A stretch of DNA of 29,971 nt from Alphaproteobacteria bacterium (GTDB lineage: Bacteria > Pseudomonadota > Alphaproteobacteria > Rhodobacterales > Rhodobacteraceae), in contig JAADIC010000155.1 in assembly GCA_013151535.1 (NCBI GenBank), forward strand, positions 1-29,971, in the 5' to 3' direction. Shown one piece after another: positions 3,136-21,474 of the stretch (its first letter is position 1; the number at the start of each line of letters is the position of its first letter). Below the pieces are notes generated by a model. The model had not been told where the DNA came from. It saw only the letters and a program-made list of their open reading frames with translations, and searched no databases. Position numbers and translations under genes: made by a program.

Positions 3136-4439
3136 CTTTCGCCAAACACCCGCGCAAAGATCGTATCCACATGCTTGGTGTGATAGGCGGTGTCGAATTT
3201 GTCCCTGATCTCGGCCTCGCTCAAGGCGGCGGTAACGTCGGTATCGGCAAGCAATTCGCTCATGAAATCCTTGCCCTGTTGCCAGACTTTCATGGCATTG
3301 CGCTGGACCAGTTTGTAAGCATCCTCGCGGCTTACACCGGCCTGGGTCAGGGCCAGAAGCACCCGCTGGCTCATCACCAGACCACGGAATTTATTCATGT
3401 TTGCCAGCATGTTATCCGGATAGATCACCAGCTTGTCGACCAGACCCGTCAAACGCGCCAGCGCGAAATCAAGGATGATGGTGGTGTCAGGGCCGATATT
3501 GCGCTCCACGGATGAATGCGAAATGTCACGCTCATGCCAAAGCGCCACATTCTCCATTGCCGGCACCACAGACATCCGCACGAGGCGCGCCAGACCTGTC
3601 AGATTTTCGCTGAGAACCGGGTTGCGTTTATGCGGCATGGCGGAGGAGCCTTTTTGGCCTTTGGAGAAAAACTCCTCGGCCTCAAGCACCTCGGTGCGCT
3701 GCATATGGCGGATTTCGGTGGCGATGTTTTCGATGCTTGACCCCACGACACCAAGGGCTGCGAAAAACGCCGCATGACGGTCGCGCGGAATGACCTGTGT
3801 GCTGATCGGTTCCGGTTCCAGCCCCAGCTTGGCGCAAACATGTTCCTCGACCTTGGGGTCAATATTGGCAAACGTGCCGACAGCACCAGAAATCGCGCCG
3901 GTGGCAATCTCGGCCCGCGCGGTTTTCAGACGGGTCAGATTTCGATCCATCTCGGCGTAAAACCGGGCGAAAGTCAGGCCCATGGTGGTTGGTTCGGCGT
4001 GAATGCCGTGCGAGCGCCCGATGCGCACGGTCATTTTATGTTCAAGGGCGCGGCGTTTGAGGGCAGCCAGCAAGGCCTCAATATCGGCGATCAGAATGTC
4101 GCTGGCGCGCACCAGTTGCACGTTGAAACAGGTGTCTAAAACGTCCGAGCTGGTCATGCCCTGATGCACGAACCGCGCCTCGTCATTGCCGATAATTTCC
4201 GCCAGATGGGTCAGGAATGCGATGACGTCATGCTTGGTCACGGCCTCGATTTCATCAATCCGGGCCACGTCAAACTCCGTATCGCGCGCCTTCCAGACGG
4301 CTTCGGCGTTTTCGCGCGGGATCACGGCCAGATCGGCCATGGCGTCACAGGCATGTGCCTCGATCTCGTACCAGATGCGAAATTTCGTGGCGGGCGACCA
4401 GATTTGAACCATCTCGGGGCGGGAATAGCGGGGGATCAT
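3132..4439 (-). CDS. purB: Adenylosuccinate lyase
   Basis: Starts MIPRYSRPEM (ATG 4439, not the ORF-track 4505). Contains TKHDVIAF, RSHGIHAEPTT and fumarase-superfamily signature GSSAMPHKRNP. Confidence 0.97.
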   Translation of the reverse strand: MIPRYSRPEMVQIWSPATKFRIWYEIEAHACDAMADLAVIPRENAEAVWKARDTEFDVARIDEIEAVTKHDVIAFLTHLAEIIGNDEARFVHQGMTSSDVLDTCFNVQLVRASDILIADIEALLAALKRRALEHKMTVRIGRSHGIHAEPTTMGLTFARFYAEMDRNLTRLKTARAEIATGAISGAVGTFANIDPKVEEHVCAKLGLEPEPISTQVIPRDRHAAFFAALGVVGSSIENIATEIRHMQRTEVLEAEEFFSKGQKGSSAMPHKRNPVLSENLTGLARLVRMSVVPAMENVALWHERDISHSSVERNIGPDTTIILDFALARLTGLVDKLVIYPDNMLANMNKFRGLVMSQRVLLALTQAGVSREDAYKLVQRNAMKVWQQGKDFMSELLADTDVTAALSEAEIRDKFDTAYHTKHVDTIFARVFGES

Positions 4440-4476
4440 GGGCTGACCTTTTCGTGGGGTGGACTGGGCTGGGTGC

Positions 4477-4505
4477 CTCTTAGACTGCCCGGCAATGGGG
4501 GACAA
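4477..4505 (-). promoter_or_regulatory. Predicted sigma70-type promoter of purB
   Basis: Minus strand TTGTCC-N17-TAAGAG, -10 element ending 37 nt upstream of the purB ATG. Confidence 0.45.
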
Positions 4506-4520
4506 GAGCGCGAGCGTCGC

Positions 4521-4580
4521 ATGGCGGACACCCCGAACATTGTTGGCGATTTTGCTGCCTTTATTGGGCTAACGGGCTAG
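4521..4580 (+). pseudogene. 19-codon micro-ORF MADTPNIVGDFAAFIGLTG*, possible truncated gene remnant running into the octamer array
   Basis: ATG 4521 divergent from purB. The stop TAG 4578-4580 is supplied by unit 2 of the repeat array. Confidence 0.25.
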
Positions 4581-4621
4581 CGGACTAGCGGGTTAATGCG
4601 CTAGCGGGCTAGCGGACTAGC
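4566..4621 (+). repeat. Degenerate 7 x 8-bp tandem array, consensus GGGCTAGC
   Basis: GGGCTAAC GGGCTAGC GGACTAGC GGGTTAAT GCGCTAGC GGGCTAGC GGACTAGC. Exact 8-bp phase, and the 16-mer GGGCTAGCGGACTAGC recurs at 32-bp spacing. Confidence 0.9.
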
Positions 4622-4727
4622 GCAGGGATGGCCTGCTCTGTGAAGTGTTGGGCACCCCCAAGGTCCCGACCGACCAAAATTCCGAGCATAATTCCGGTTT
4701 CCGGCCCCCGAAAACCGGCCATTTGTC

Positions 4728-4739
4728 GGTATATATACC
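4728..4739. promoter_or_regulatory. Perfect 12-bp palindrome GGTATATATACC upstream of bioY (candidate operator)
   Basis: Palindrome seen directly. Inner 10-mer GTATATATAC matches the alphaproteobacterial BioR box TTATMKATAA at 8/10, with both terminal bases changed. Confidence 0.4.
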
Positions 4740-4830
4740 CAATAGCGCCGGTTTTGCCCTGTTTGCACTTGCAGCATGATCCATGCTTGGGCAAAACAGG
4801 CCCAGTGAAACTGAAATCGAGGGAAAATTG

Positions 4831-5430
4831 ATGGCAATGCAGATGACAGGCACAGTTTTAAGCGAAGAAATCCTGCCAGCCGAGGGCGCGGCCCTGTGGG
4901 TAAAACGCGCGGTTCTGGTGGGTTTCGGCATTCTGGCGTTGGCGGCGTCTTCCAAAATTTCCATTCCGGTCGGCCCGGTTCCGGTGACCATGGGCACGTT
5001 CGCGGTGCTGACTATCGGTGCCGCCTATGGCGCGCGTCTGGGGCTGGTGACGATGCTGGGTTATATGCTGATCGGCATGCTGGGCTTTGACGTTTTCGCC
5101 AAGACCACGGCGGAACTGAACGGCTGGGAATATATGACAGGCTCTACCGGCGGCTATCTGCTGGGTTTTGTGCTGGCGACTTTGGTACTTGGCGCGTTGG
5201 CGCGTAAAGGCTGGGATCGCAGCCCGGTCAAAATGGCGCTGGCCATGGTTCTGGGCAATGTGCTGATCTATATCCCGGGCATCCTGTGGCTGGGTCAGCT
5301 TTACGGCTGGGACAAGCCAATTTTGGATTGGGGGCTTTATCCGTTCCTGGTGGCTGACGGGATCAAGCTGGTTCTGGCTGCGATGATCCTGCCAGCGCTT
5401 TGGGCGATTGTGGGTAAAGCGCGCGGCTAA
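4831..5430 (+). CDS. bioY: Biotin transporter S-component BioY (no bioMN adjacent)
   Basis: IPVGPVPVTMGTF, GLPVFA-like GFDVFA and GSTGGYLLGF motifs; all hydrophobic. ATG 4831 preceded by GAGGGA. Confidence 0.93.
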   Translation: MAMQMTGTVLSEEILPAEGAALWVKRAVLVGFGILALAASSKISIPVGPVPVTMGTFAVLTIGAAYGARLGLVTMLGYMLIGMLGFDVFAKTTAELNGWEYMTGSTGGYLLGFVLATLVLGALARKGWDRSPVKMALAMVLGNVLIYIPGILWLGQLYGWDKPILDWGLYPFLVADGIKLVLAAMILPALWAIVGKARG

Positions 5431-5450
5431 GGGCGCATCGCTTAATATCT

Positions 5451-5494
5451 AACAAAAAAGGGCGCGGGGTTTGATTCCCGCGCCCTTTTTGTTT
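5451..5494. terminator. Bidirectional intrinsic terminator between convergent bioY and gltA
   Basis: AACAAAAAAGGGCGCGGG-GTTTGATT-CCCGCGCCCTTTTTGTT: GC stem flanked by A- and T-tracts. Confidence 0.92.
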
Positions 5495-5509
5495 GTGTCG
5501 GCATTACGC

Positions 5510-6805
5510 TTAACGCTTTTCCACATCCACATAATCGCGGTTCGCCGCACCGGTATAAAGCTGGCGCGGGCGGCCGATTTTCTGGGTTGGGTCGGCGATC
5601 ATCTCTTTCCACTGGGCGATCCAGCCAACTGTGCGGCTGAGCGCGAAGATCGGTGTGAACATCGAGGTCGAGAACCCCATCGCATCCAGAATGATACCCG
5701 AATAGAAATCCACATTCGGGTACAGCTTTTTACTGATGAAATACTCATCCTCAAGCGCGATCCGCTCAAGCTCTTTCGCCACTTGCAGGGTTGGGTTATT
5801 TTCAATCCCCAGCAGCCCCAGAACCTCGTCGGCACTTTCCTTCATCACCTTGGCGCGCGGGTCAAAGTTTTTGTACACCCGATGGCCAAAGCCCATCAGG
5901 CGGAACGGGTCATTCTTGTCCTTGGCGCGCGCCACATATTCAGGGATGCGATCAACCGTGCCGATTTCGCGCAGCATCGACAAAGCCGCCTCGTTGGCAC
6001 CTCCATGGGCAGGGCCCCACAAGCAGGCAATGCCCGCCGCGATACAGGCAAACGGGTTGGCCCCGGAAGACCCCGCAAGCCGCACGGTCGAGGTCGAGGC
6101 GTTCTGCTCGTGATCCGCATGCAGCGTGAATATCCGGTCCATGGCGCGGCTCAGGATCGGGTTAACCTCGTATTCTTCAGCCGGAACCGCGAAACACATG
6201 CGCAGGAAATTCGCCGCATAATCCAGATCGTTGCGCGGATAGACGAACGGCTGGCCGATCGAATATTTGAAAGCCATGGCCGCGATGGTTGGCAGCTTGG
6301 CGATCATACGGATCGAGGCGATCTCGCGTTGCATCGGATCGTTGATATCGGTGCTGTCGTGGTAAAATGCCGACATCGCCCCAACCACGCCAACCATGGT
6401 CGCCATCGGGTGGGCATCGCGCCGGAAACCACGGAAAAAGTTGTGCATCTGCTCATGCACCATGGTGTGATTGGTCACCCGGCTTTCAAAATCGTCCAGC
6501 TCGTCGGCCGAGGGCAGTTCGCCATAAAGCAGCAGGTAACAGACTTCGAGGTAATGGGATTTTTCCGCCAACTGATCGATGGGATAACCGCGATACAGCA
6601 GCTCGCCCTTTTCGCCATCAATGAAGGTGATGTCCGATTGGCACGACGCGGTCGAGGTGAAGCCGGGGTCATAGGTGAATATATCGGCATCCGCATACAG
6701 CCGGCCGATGTCGACGACATCGGGGCCAAGAACGGGGGATTTCATCGGCAATTCAAATGTTTTGCCATCAAAGCTCAGCGTCGCGGTTTTCGGGCTTTCT
6801 GCCAT
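5510..6805 (-). CDS. gltA: Citrate synthase (type II)
   Basis: [62 protein letters not shown]. Start MAESPK at ATG 6805 behind GAGAGGTAGG. Confidence 0.98.
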
Positions 6806-18364: not shown

Positions 18365-20233
18365 TCAGGGGATTTGCCGGTGAACCGCATCGATCAGCGG
18401 CTGGTTGACGGTGATACCAGCCTCGTCGCGCAGGGCGGTGGTGAAAGCCTCGATCACATCATTGCCAAGCTGGGTGGAGAATTGCGCCGCCACATTGGCC
18501 AGAATGGTCTTGCTGGCTTCGGCCTTGGGATCAAACGGGGTGATTTTGGTGAGCTGGCTCAGCACCACCTGGGCGCTGTCCTCGATCACCTGAACGGCGT
18601 CAGGGTCAGCCTCAAAAACCGTGGTCACCAGATCGGCAGGGGCGTTTTCGGCCTGCTGATCGCGGCGCAAATCAACCTCGGCTTTCGCCACCAGCCCCAG
18701 ATCGGTGAAGGTTTCGCCAGCCCCCAGCCGGGCCTTATAGCTGTCTGCCAGCGCCAGCACTTGCCGACGGGTTTGCGCCGCTTTCCAATCGGTAATCACC
18801 TTATCCGTAACCTCGTCAAGCGGGATCAGGGCGGGGGGGGTGATGCTGTCCAGACGCAGGGCAAAGATACCGCCATCGCTTAGCATCAGCACTTCGGGAA
18901 AATCGCCTGTCTGGGCGGCCTCGGCCGTGGTGCGGAATGTGTCATAAGCGATGATGTCGCCCGGCTCACCGGTGTCACCCGCCACATATTTGAGGCTGGC
19001 AACATTCATGGCGGTTTCCGCCGCGATGTCTTCCAGCGATACCCCACCCGCCAGCAGATCGTCGATATTGGTCACGTCGTCCTGCACCACGCGCCGGGCC
19101 TGATCGGCCACATATTCGCGTTTCAGAACGGCTTTGGCGTCTTCAAAACTGGTGAATTGGGCCGCCAGAACCGCGTTCACACGAAACAATGCCGGCCCAA
19201 GCTCGGAGTCAACGGGGCCAACAACGCCGGGTTCACTGAGCAGAAAGACGGCCTTGCCCGCCGCATCCGAAAGATCGGCCTCTTCAACCTGTCCCATATC
19301 GACATCGGCAAGCGTCAGGCCGCGCGTGGCGACGATATCGCCGAAAATCTTGCTGCCCGAGGTGATCTGGTCAAGCGCATCCTGAGCTTCGGCCTCGGTG
19401 GCAAAAACCAAGCGATCAACGATGCGCCGGTCCGGCTTGTTGAAGCGCGTGTCCTGATCCTTATAAAGGCCCAGAAGCGTCTCGTCATCCACCTTGATCG
19501 TGTCATAAAGCATATCGGGCGTCAGCAGCACATAGGTGATGTTGCGAATTTCCGGCGCGGTGTAAGCCTCGGGAGCGGCCTTATATTGTTCGTCGATCTG
19601 GGCCGCATTCGGTTCGGGCACCGGCGCGTCCAGCAGGTTGGCATCAACCACCGCCCAGGAAAAATTGCGGGTTTCCCCGAGGTAGTTGAACAACGCCAAC
19701 CCGTAGGCGTCATCAGCATTAATGCCGCTGACTACGGCGGTTTGCAGCAGATTGCGCGCGGTGTCTTTGCGGATGCTGGCATCATAGCCAGAGGGGGTCA
19801 GGTTGGCCTGAGCCAGGGCGGATTCGTAGGCGATTTTATCAAATGAGCCAGACATGGCCTGAAAGGCCGGGGTCGCCAACAAGTTGGCCTTGACCCGTTC
19901 ATCCCCGACTGACAGGCCGATGCGGGCGTTTTCACCATCAAGGGCGGCGGTGTTCAGAACCGTGCTCATGACCTGGGCGTCAATACCAAAGGATAGCGCC
20001 TGCTCCAGCGTGATATTGGTGCCGAATTGCTGGGAAATACCGCGCAATTGCGCGCGCAGAACGGTGACATATTCATCCACCGTCACTTCCTGATCGCCCA
20101 CCGAGGCGATCGCCTGTGAGCCGCCCGAACCGACAGAGCGCACGCCAAATCCGGTCAGGGATATGACCAGCAGGCCCAGCAGGGCATAAATAACCATATT
20201 GTTCTTTTTCTTGGCGCGCAGCGGAGCGGACAT
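18365..20233 (-). CDS. ppiD: PpiD-like periplasmic chaperone / parvulin PPIase with SurA N-terminal domain
   Basis: Basic N-terminus plus one TM (LGLLVISLTGFG), IASVGDQEVT, rotamase-like GVVGPVDSELG. Start MSAPLRAKKK at ATG 20233. Confidence 0.9.
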   Translation of the reverse strand: MSAPLRAKKKNNMVIYALLGLLVISLTGFGVRSVGSGGSQAIASVGDQEVTVDEYVTVLRAQLRGISQQFGTNITLEQALSFGIDAQVMSTVLNTAALDGENARIGLSVGDERVKANLLATPAFQAMSGSFDKIAYESALAQANLTPSGYDASIRKDTARNLLQTAVVSGINADDAYGLALFNYLGETRNFSWAVVDANLLDAPVPEPNAAQIDEQYKAAPEAYTAPEIRNITYVLLTPDMLYDTIKVDDETLLGLYKDQDTRFNKPDRRIVDRLVFATEAEAQDALDQITSGSKIFGDIVATRGLTLADVDMGQVEEADLSDAAGKAVFLLSEPGVVGPVDSELGPALFRVNAVLAAQFTSFEDAKAVLKREYVADQARRVVQDDVTNIDDLLAGGVSLEDIAAETAMNVASLKYVAGDTGEPGDIIAYDTFRTTAEAAQTGDFPEVLMLSDGGIFALRLDSITPPALIPLDEVTDKVITDWKAAQTRRQVLALADSYKARLGAGETFTDLGLVAKAEVDLRRDQQAENAPADLVTTVFEADPDAVQVIEDSAQVVLSQLTKITPFDPKAEASKTILANVAAQFSTQLGNDVIEAFTTALRDEAGITVNQPLIDAVHRQIP

Positions 20234-20266
20234 GTATCGGCCTTTCGTCACTTGAATTTTGCAGGA

Positions 20267-20295
20267 GTATTAGGGCCAAGGCGCGCCCGACACAA
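20267..20295 (-). promoter_or_regulatory. Predicted promoter of ppiD-trpE
   Basis: Minus strand (C)TTGTGT-N17-TAATAC. The CTTG...CCCTAATA context is also compatible with RpoH. Confidence 0.5.
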
Positions 20296-20302
20296 GAGAG
20301 GG

Positions 20303-20330
20303 CTTGGCGGCAATCCGGCTTGTCGCCAAG
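20303..20330. terminator. 11-bp stem-loop just upstream of the ppiD promoter
   Basis: CTTGGCGGCAA-TCCGGC-TTGTCGCCAAG (one G-U pair). No clear U-tract. Confidence 0.35.
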
Positions 20331-20349
20331 AAGTGATGCTTTGTGGTCT

Positions 20350-20460
20350 TTAGAGCTAATCCAATCCAGTTGAATTCACCCATCGAGCTGAGCGCGCTTG
20401 GAAATACAAACGCTGCCTCGGGCCGATGGGTGATTACCTGAATCCAAAATGATTGCTTTC
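20350..20460. mobile_element. Degenerate palindromic MITE/REP-like element
   Basis: TTAGAGC...GCTTTC imperfect termini, perfect internal arms TCACCCATCG (20376-20385) / CGATGGGTGA (20424-20433), nested inner stem, no ORF. Resembles interspersed repeats I recall from Roseobacter-group genomes (not verified by search). Confidence 0.5.
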
Positions 20461-20545
20461 GTTCAAAATGTGGTTTTTGATGCGGCGATTAGTCTGGCGA
20501 ATGTCCAAAATAATCGTTGACTTATTCGTGTGCCTGAACTTGCTT

Positions 20546-20664
20546 CGCTAGCCCGCTAGCCCGCTAGCCCGCTAGCCCGCTAGCCCGCTAGCCCGCTAGC
20601 CCGCTAGCCCGCTAGCCCGCTAGCCCGCTACCCGCTAGCCCGCTAGCCCGCTAGCCCGCTAGCC
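20546..20664 (-). repeat. 15-copy tandem array of an 8-bp unit (CGCTAGCC on +, GGGCTAGC rotation on -)
   Basis: 14 perfect units plus one 7-bp unit (20626-20632, CGCTACC); 119 bp in total. The unit at 20657-20664 contains the TAG stop of the ICL-family gene. Confidence 0.98.
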
Positions 20665-21474
20665 CAGCATTTTATCGGTGATACTGGCGGGCAATGTTCC
20701 GGCCAGCGGACTGAAATCGCCGCAATCGAACATGGCTTGTCCGGCGTCATAAATCGCGCGGTGGGTCAGGCGGGCCAAGGCGGCCCCAAGGCTGATCCGT
20801 GCCACACCAAGGGCGGCGAACTGCGCGCGACTGGTTCTGGCGTAAGGGCCGGCGGCCAGGGCGTTGATCGGGGCCTTGATCTCGGTGCAGATGCGCCTGA
20901 GGTCGGCCATGGTTTTCGGGAGCGGCGCATAAAGGCAGTCAGCCCCGGCGGCTTCAAAGGCCTTGAGGCGCTTCATGGTTTCCTCGATGTCGTATTGACC
21001 TTGCAGGATGCCATCGGCGCGCGCCACCAGCACGAAATCACGCGGTAAGGCGCGGGCCGCATCAACCGCGGCGCGGATACGTTCAACCGCCAGATCAAAA
21101 TCATAGGCGCAGTCGGCGGGCAGGGCGGTGTCCTCGATGGAAATACCGGCCAATCCGGCCTCGGCTGCCAGCCGCACGGTTTGCGCGCAAGTTTCCGGTG
21201 CTTCGCCAAAGCCGTTTTCAAAGTCGCCCGAGACCGGCAGGTTTGTGGCTACCACCAGATCGGCAGCGTGGGCCAGCGCCTCGTCGCGGCTGAGGGTTCC
21301 CTGATCGGGGCGGCCAAGGGTGAAGGCCTGCGCGCCAGAGGAGGTGCCAATCGCCTGCGCCCCAAGTGCCGCCAGCATTTTGGCGCTGCCCTGATCCCAT
21401 GCATTGGCAAGGATGAATGGATTGCCGGGTTGGTGCAGGGCGCGAAACGCCGGGCCGGGGTCGTGTCTGGGCAT
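20659..21474 (-). CDS. Isocitrate lyase / PEP mutase family protein
   Basis: ANAWDQGSAK, GDFENGFG, GISIED, LVARADG, AGADCLYAP, RISLG. Lacks the K-x-C-G-H loop of ICL/PrpB. Confidence 0.88.
   Translation of the reverse strand: MPRHDPGPAFRALHQPGNPFILANAWDQGSAKMLAALGAQAIGTSSGAQAFTLGRPDQGTLSRDEALAHAADLVVATNLPVSGDFENGFGEAPETCAQTVRLAAEAGLAGISIEDTALPADCAYDFDLAVERIRAAVDAARALPRDFVLVARADGILQGQYDIEETMKRLKAFEAAGADCLYAPLPKTMADLRRICTEIKAPINALAAGPYARTSRAQFAALGVARISLGAALARLTHRAIYDAGQAMFDCGDFSPLAGTLPASITDKMLG

Follow-up and report, generated by a model that had tools for sequence, protein, structure and literature searches.

The 15-unit octamer array that ends a gene in the window (the whole 29,971-nt stretch of DNA analysed here, contig C217 of the source genome) is probably one copy of a clade-restricted, hypervariable family of intergenic octamer microsatellites that is dispersed through the genome and mainly selfish or neutral, its part in supplying a stop codon being accidental; we put the probability of this reading at roughly 0.55. 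The source genome, G000, is a short-read MAG of 2.98 Mb in 375 contigs, with 57.6% G+C and 84% completeness; the names of its closest protein homologues point to Rhodobacteraceae/Paracoccaceae. The features of the window on which the account is built are collected in Table 1.

Table 1 Features of the window that bear on the octamer arrays
Feature	Position	Strand	Basis
Degenerate array, 7 units, 32-nt higher-order repeat, opposite orientation to the array at 20546	4566..4622	+	TRF, unit parse
Degenerate array plus ~100 nt of unrelated DNA, in place of a 117-codon gene	4521..4690		Comparison with L125:16467-16820
Relic of the ancestral stop TAA	20350..20352	-	Aligned to the stop of the syntenic relative
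MITE-like repeat, ~110-120 nt, TIRs TAGAGCAAATCC...GGTTTCGCTCTA, part of the ~310-bp insertion	20352..20463		At least 28 genome copies
Array tail: TTGACT (-35-like, 20517-20522), 22 nt, then TCGCTAGCC	20464..20545	+	Locus-specific DNA
Octamer array, 15 units (14 x GGGCTAGC and one GGGTAGC)	20546..20665	-	TRF and minus-strand parse
Terminal codon GGC (Gly) and TAG stop (20659-20661), both gained from the first repeat unit	20659..20664	-	Relatives end ...Met-Leu-X-stop; syntenic relative GAC TAA
PEP_mutase / isocitrate-lyase-family gene, 271 aa	20659..21474	-	Pfam PF13714, E 3e-71

An octamer array at the end of a PEP-mutase-family gene

Read on the minus strand, the array consists of four perfect GGGCTAGC units, one GGGTAGC and ten further perfect GGGCTAGC units, a head-to-tail series of a single short unit (TRF period 8, 15.1 copies, 98% matches, score 233). 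An earlier, sequence-only reading of this DNA had described the same 15 units, with limits one base away from ours that reflect unit rotation only, and had argued that they place a TAG stop in all six frames. Both points hold: each frame contains four to six stops, and the one defective unit lacks just the C before TAG, so that its stop survives as that reading had said. The scarcity of CTAG elsewhere in the window is likewise real, with 19 of the 27 occurrences falling within two arrays (20546-20665 and 4566-4622). The whole array is predicted to fold, as RNA, into a single hairpin on either strand (-83 and -72 kcal/mol), and the gene strand, which has the form (G3N5)n, would by its sequence pattern qualify as a G-quadruplex motif (at least four G3 runs, 1-7 nt apart). 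Consensus scans of 20200-20750 returned no promoter and no intrinsic terminator; the hairpin is present there without a U tract.

The PEP-mutase-family open reading frame ends ...ATG CTG GGC TAG, with both GGC and TAG inside the first unit. For comparison we used a JGI metagenome contig (L124/L125) that is syntenic with the window over ~30 kb at ~81% nucleotide identity. Its PEP-mutase gene (87% amino acid identity) ends ...ATG CTG GAC TAA, and a SurA/PpiD-like gene starts 115 nt further on. The two sequences align cleanly on both sides of 309-310 nt that are extra in G000 between CTGG and CTAAAG, and the TAA of the relative aligns with a TAA retained in G000, 310 nt downstream of the new stop. 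PEP-mutase-family genes in other species of the genus likewise end one codon past Met-Leu, and since these and the syntenic relative agree, the longer G000 state is derived. The alignment shows that the array arrived inside a ~310-bp insertion, one codon before the old TAA stop of the gene. This insertion comprises the array, a ~80-nt tail containing TTGACT and an unrelated ~110-nt MITE; the tail is missing from the syntenic relative and has no second copy anywhere in G000. Neither a TIR nor a target-site duplication is found at the array insertion junctions in this alignment.

With a CTAG palindrome and a period that is not a multiple of three, the first unit closed the reading frame immediately. 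The length of the protein is unchanged, its C terminus reading ...Leu-Gly in place of ...Leu-Asp. The array had been thought to grow from a TAG stop; the ancestral stop was TAA, and the TAG itself was brought in by the incoming array DNA. The companion idea that the repeat targets TAG stops fares no better, because only one of the 21 long arrays in the genome supplies a stop, with two more lying 7-12 nt after one. The array-supplied stop is an accident of the insertion and not the purpose of the element.

A dispersed intergenic repeat family in the source genome

The octamer is by far the commonest tandem repeat of G000, accounting for 36 TRF rows and 2.7 kb in total, with other units reaching at most 12 rows. 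There are 21 arrays with at least four units (4 to ~27) and ~15 short, palindromic or degenerate ones, and all 27 arrays scored for context are intergenic, so that the same short unit recurs in tandem at many separate intergenic loci, in the manner of STRR and TAACTGA-type repeats. The sequence-only reading had favoured a dispersed repeat family and had called local slippage alone an incomplete explanation, and the 36 rows, the 21 arrays and their common boundary motifs bear it out on both; its reservation that the two arrays of the window might be the only ones in the genome falls away with at least 21. Copy numbers are minimum estimates, since G000 is a short-read MAG in which three arrays contain scaffold gaps (N) and four lie at contig ends.

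Across the family the unit is GG[G/A/T]CTA[G/T]C, which in G000 is almost purely GGGCTAGC. When long arrays are read as GGGCTAGC, the left boundary is (TTT)CCGCCAyTGC followed by GCTAGCGG, where GCCAyTGC is itself an in-phase degenerate unit that is doubled on contig C21. The right boundary consists of GCTAGCGA, AGCC, ~19 nt, TGTCAA and an AAATT-rich stretch; on the opposite strand this reads as an A/T-rich stretch, TTGACA, 22-25 nt and then TCGCTAGCC. A short palindromic form of the motif, CACTGCGCTAGC-GG-GCTAGCGCAGTG, occurs on contig C221.

Orientation relative to the upstream gene is unbiased among the 21 arrays (12 on the same strand, 9 on the opposite one). The 17 arrays with both neighbours known comprise seven in convergent, six in tandem and four in divergent spacers, an enrichment of convergent spacers over the 17% found among intergenic regions (7/17, p ~0.02). 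Other repeat families lie within 300 nt of 5 of 19 arrays.

The arrays hold 276 of the 1329 CTAG sites in the genome, and outside them CTAG has an observed-to-expected ratio of 0.73 under a maximal-order Markov model. GCTAGC shows no depletion outside arrays (ratio 1.09). We therefore rejected restriction avoidance of GCTAGC, and the earlier suggestion of a methylase or restriction system finds no support in this ratio. An Rfam search at the gathering threshold, covering the window and ten array loci, returned one tRNA only.

Gain, loss and replacement of arrays among relatives

The second array in the window had been reported at 4566 as the same octamer in the opposite orientation. It is real and its orientation is as described, but it is the same octamer only in part, being degenerate (75% matches) and built from GGGCTAAC, GGGCTAGC, GGACTAGC, GGGTTAAT and GCGCTAGC units. 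In the syntenic relative a 117-codon gene without a Pfam family lies between bioY and purB; this gene is missing from G000, where a 19-codon stump closed by the degenerate array is seen. The suggestion that arrays are filler DNA at deletion sites thus gains anecdotal support at this locus.

At the C141 locus, three relatives (94-95% amino acid and 82-85% nucleotide identity) have spacers of 35-61 nt between convergent genes, against 212 nt in G000, where the array begins 7 nt past a stop codon and is followed by ~125 nt of new DNA with TTGACA. At C349, the spacer of a 94%-identical relative measures 138 nt and contains no array. The arrays at 20546 in the window, C141 and C349 are thus present in G000, while a close relative has none at the corresponding position. 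In the nearest known relative, arrays are absent at all four loci compared, and a single GCTAGC site occurs in the ~55 kb examined. Non-homologous new DNA accompanies the array at each of the four loci that can be compared with close relatives. On the best-supported account, arrays are gained and lost between close species. For a second assembly of the G000 species, a metagenome scan with array plus boundary gave 0 matches, a four-unit metagenome scan gave 12 matches, none from the G000 organism, and an exact-protein look-up found nothing on record.

Exact-unit searches returned nothing outside G000. They covered 60 relatives with a 32-mer, 300 genera of the family with a 14-mer and, with one mismatch allowed, 18 species of the same genus with a 14-mer. 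With a degenerate pattern (CTAKCGGN x3), arrays came to light in one further species of the genus (G002, ~70-77% identical to G000 at the nucleotide level) and in none of the remaining 17; the family is therefore not confined to the G000 species. The G002 units are GGACTAGC and GGACTATC, and each of the three G002 loci coincides in position with a G000 array (C21, C43 and C349). At C43 the arrays of both species start at the same nucleotide past a conserved TTTCCRCCAsT flank. The GG/CC orientation is opposite in the two species at C43 and C349 and the same at C21. At C349 both species have TTGAC[A/T], 27 nt and then the first CTA[G/T], with unrelated spacers. The octamer family is older than the G000 species.

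Five metagenome assemblies of the G002 species carry two alleles of its C349 array within identical flanks, with 1+3 units in four of them and 4+2 units in the fifth, and the G002 assembly itself is split into both alleles at that array. Array length and composition change rapidly within the G002 species. In the GGACTATC unit only one strand carries a stop, the palindrome is weaker and the G run is G2 instead of G3, so that six-frame stops, the hairpin and the G-quadruplex motif are not conserved across the family.

A TTGACA hexamer at a fixed distance from the arrays

Measured from the last unit, an exact TTGACA occurs at 30-33 nt in 7 of 19 arrays, compared with 0.6% of random intergenic windows (p = 1e-11); with up to one mismatch the count is 11 of 19 against a background of 9.5% (p = 2e-7). 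The hexamer follows an A/T-rich stretch. The 22 nt that separate it from the array have a mean pairwise identity of 31%, compared with a background of 25 +/- 1%, and no -10 hexamer is evident. A native promoter-like arrangement of CTTGACA, 17 nt and CAACCGTT lies just before an ATG on C263 (L068) and in its orthologues L142-L144, in four species of the genus, which suggests that native promoters of the genus have a strong -35 element and no TATAAT-like -10 element. The tail was also considered as an extension of the neighbouring MITE and rejected as such, the tail-MITE distances being unequal at the two loci that have both.

Other repeats and candidate mobilising enzymes

The MITE that shares the insertion in the window has a body of ~110-120 nt with an internal imperfect palindrome. 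Its copies, 75-87% identical, lie on contigs C78, C37, C186, C135, C15 and C188 and elsewhere besides the window; the nearest relative has no copy in its 30 kb of synteny, and the MITE adjoins an octamer array at two loci. A composite repeat of ~330 nt, termed class B, occurs in six copies, at C218:3667-3975 and on C26, C216, C93, C303 and C160 (loci L053-L057). It has inverted GCCAGCCCCC/GGGGGCTGGC arms, a conserved block of ~170 nt and an interior of degenerate octamers with a 24-nt period (GGGCTAAT, GGGCTAGC, GGACTAGC) in a variable 7-17 units; its last 50 nt, a GGCATTTCTGCAGAAATGCC hairpin, form a separate module with at least 12 copies that is also present in two other species of the genus. 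The array at 4566 resembles the class-B repeat in its units, and the class-B repeat has no match in Rfam. Copies of the MITE and of the class-B repeat in G000 are 75-93% identical among themselves, unlike the array tails. A second octamer family, of GGTCTATC/CCGGTAGA type with 16-32-nt higher-order periods, lies at C10:9756-9838, C55:224-316, C237:81-160 and C50 ~880-940; it adjoins GGGCTAGC-type units on C237 and C50 and is one base from the GGACTATC unit of G002.

No dedicated mobilising enzyme for the octamer arrays was found in G000. A reverse transcriptase, transposase or RAYT co-occurring with the arrays had been proposed as a check, and each kind of gene is present in another setting. 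The RAYT-like gene (C35 ~3370-4000, L114:1282-1914, 210 aa) scores 22 bits against Y1_Tnp, below the 23-bit Pfam cut-off, and lies between GTAGGATGCGTG...CACGCATCCTAC palindromes of a separate REP family, not between octamers; with different REPs of its own, it was rejected as the mobiliser. The sole reverse transcriptase of the genome is an RT-Cas1 fusion (C5 ~3411-5717, L115:349-2655, 768 aa, RVT_1 and Cas_Cas1), which implies a CRISPR system able to acquire spacers from RNA. An IS110-family transposase (C216:392-1463, L054), split into 208-aa and 101-aa open reading frames, sits exactly at the CTGAACAAT end of a class-B repeat. In five IS110 homologues the IS end lies ~15 nt past the stop codon (ACAGTTGCT), so the adjoining class-B repeat is an insertion target and not part of the IS, and this element too was rejected as the mobiliser. 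The IS110 family is known to target repeated palindromic sequences, and the C216 insertion fits this habit.

Occurrence elsewhere and resemblance to known repeats

A three-unit scan of 185,579 species genomes found 40 stretches in ~25 genomes of unrelated phyla. Multi-locus octamer families, often with inverted pairs, occur in an Acidobacterium MAG (12 stretches) and in two Acidimicrobiia MAGs; some arrays of other MAGs lie on megabase contigs of up to 2.6 Mb, and JGI metagenomes place the octamer in further lineages, including contigs of 41-43% G+C. The boundaries of the G000 family are not shared by the arrays of other phyla, one Acidimicrobiia flank being loosely similar (GCGAAG...TGTCAA), so common descent with them is not indicated. 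A full-text search with the doubled unit found no publication on this octamer family, and single 8-mers returned primer noise only.

Several known systems share some of these properties. Mazel et al. are said to have described, in 1990, STRR heptamer arrays of heterocystous cyanobacteria, which are likewise lineage-specific, dispersed intergenic tandem arrays of one short unit and of unknown function, but differ in unit length, sequence and phylum; to our knowledge, neither a promoter-like flank nor a palindromic core has been described for STRR. REP/BIME elements (REPINs) with their RAYTs are also small, hairpin-capable intergenic repeats enriched between convergent genes, and short palindromic forms exist here too, whereas the main octamer copies are long unidirectional tandem arrays and the RAYT-like gene is flanked by the GTAGGATGCGTG REP. 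Some MITEs, such as the Correia elements of Neisseria, carry outward promoters and fold into hairpins. Like the octamer elements, these are non-coding, are present or absent between relatives, have a -35-like box and are able to alter gene ends; for the octamer elements, unlike them, no TIR or target duplication was found, their non-array part is not conserved and their body is a tandem array.

MetJ metboxes and TrpR CTAG half-sites are tandem sites in an 8-bp register beside a TTGACA promoter, with two to five units and a known repressor. The 8-bp register, the palindromic core (CTAG in TrpR) and the position just downstream of a TTGACA -35 element recall the octamer arrays, which differ in reaching at least 19 units, in being variable, in often not preceding a gene and in having no TrpR-family gene. 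As in VNTRs and contingency loci, copy number varies among samples of one species (4 versus 6 units in G002); ordinary VNTRs, in contrast, are single loci with private units, and the octamer is common to over 20 loci, which change together from one species to another. Closest among described analogues, alongside STRR, are the TAACTGA heptamer direct repeats found between genes in marine Beggiatoaceae, Cyanobacteria and Bacteroidetes (MacGregor 2015, PMC4679880). These combine a short stop-containing unit, a period that is not a multiple of three and tandem copies at many intergenic sites with a patchy phylogeny, no evident transfer mechanism and an unproven function, all as in the octamer family; they are distinguished by a heptamer unit, 2-6 copies per set, a usual position a few nucleotides ahead of start codons and a proposed post-transcriptional regulator (PMC4679880). 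The octamer family has 4-27 copies, no start-codon preference, a palindromic core and TTGACA at a fixed distance.

Discussion

The arrays are probably passengers, mainly selfish or neutral, for which there is room between genes. The changes in copy number seen in G002 are those that slipped-strand mispairing would produce; the self-complementary GCTAGC core may promote both slippage and inversion in place, and new copies probably arise through a trans-acting or recombinational process. Enrichment in convergent spacers and nearby repeat families are both common where selfish repeats are tolerated. No homology can be recognised among the tails, which sits uneasily with recent copy-and-paste from a single master element. 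A fixed TTGACA distance, with one unit at 21 loci of G000 and another in G002, looks like constraint or inter-locus homogenisation, and the spacing and the uniformity of the unit fit a functional element read in trans better than junk. Together with the re-use of sites in two species, when the nearest relative has none, these features resist a purely selfish reading, and we regard regulation through a reader as a minority view that deserves a place beside it.

What such regulation would entail can be stated precisely. Each array would be a cis-regulatory element placed just after a promoter-like module made up of an A/T-rich stretch, TTGACA and a spacer of 16-19 nt, and a DNA- or RNA-binding factor acting in trans would read it at 8-bp intervals. 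The specificity of this factor would co-evolve with the unit, hence one unit at all loci of a genome. We consider this unlikely, though well short of negligible. It accounts for the hexamer at 30-33 nt (7/19 exact, p = 1e-11; 11/19 with up to one mismatch, p = 2e-7), for the A/T-rich stretch ahead of it, for TTGAC[A/T]-27 nt-CTA[G/T] at the co-located G002 array despite differing spacers and for a unit that is uniform within a genome and differs between species (GGGCTAGC versus GGACTAGC/GGACTATC), and the 8-bp register beside TTGACA would have an analogue in the MetJ and TrpR operators. It does not sit well with the missing -10 hexamer and the empty consensus promoter scan, nor with the 12 of 21 arrays whose putative promoter would direct transcription into a gene from its 3' end. 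No TrpR-family protein occurs in 19 genomes of the genus (PF01371 is without a match in G000 or G002) and no candidate reader was identified, and a copy number that varies within a species, with a nearest relative lacking arrays at 4/4 loci, marks the arrays as dispensable. A more specific form is equally doubtful. In it, arrays are always anchored ~24-27 nt after TTGACA whatever the spacer, and their uniformity over more than 20 loci is maintained either by a trans-acting reader that co-evolves with them or by directed conversion between loci; arrays so anchored may be related to the multi-locus GGGCTAGC-type arrays of Acidobacteriota and Acidimicrobiia MAGs.

The remaining explanations each capture a part of the data. 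New DNA beside the array at all four comparable loci, tails that share almost no sequence and the replacement of a 117-codon gene at 4566 are what would be seen if arrays were made or captured, along with pieces of unrelated DNA, where the chromosome breaks or at the junctions of deletions. Random filler would not be expected to have conserved left and right boundary motifs, a fixed TTGACA distance or co-location in two species, and we know of no bacterial mechanism that adds templated octamers at breaks, so repair filler appears improbable as a general account. A shade less probable again is a selected six-frame stop wall or read-through insulator that ends translation, and perhaps transcription by way of the hairpin, in both directions. 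Four to six stops in every frame, a hairpin predicted to be stable on both strands, the convergent spacers (7/17, p ~0.02) and the open reading frame that the window array does terminate all speak for it; yet one array in 21 supplies a stop, four lie between divergent starts with no gene end to insulate, the GGACTATC arrays of G002 stop one strand only and form a much weaker palindrome, there is no U-tract terminator, and one or two units would suffice where arrays reach at least 19. An assembly or binning artefact is naturally suspected in a short-read MAG of 375 contigs with three gapped arrays and four at contig ends, but most long arrays lie inside contigs without a gap and with unique flanks on both sides, the flanks have orthologues in the genus, independent assemblies of the G002 species carry co-located arrays and similar arrays occur in contigs of up to 2.6 Mb in other MAGs, all of which makes an artefact very improbable indeed.

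Three features are not explained together by current models of bacterial repeats, namely a genome-wide unit that differs between species, orientation flips in place and a fixed distance to a -35-like hexamer. If promoter-anchored reading is true, the arrays would represent a regulatory or chromosome-organising system not described before, or else a new kind of mobile repeat whose docking site is the promoter open complex. Should a reader protein or an insertion mechanism targeted to promoters lie behind them, the octamer arrays of several phyla would become easier to approach. In practical terms, short-read assemblies break at the arrays, which could be used as strain markers. The family documents young, fast-moving non-coding DNA in marine Rhodobacteraceae, and the window illustrates how a gene whose own stop codon is displaced by an incoming repeat can yet stay intact, as the repeat closes every frame.
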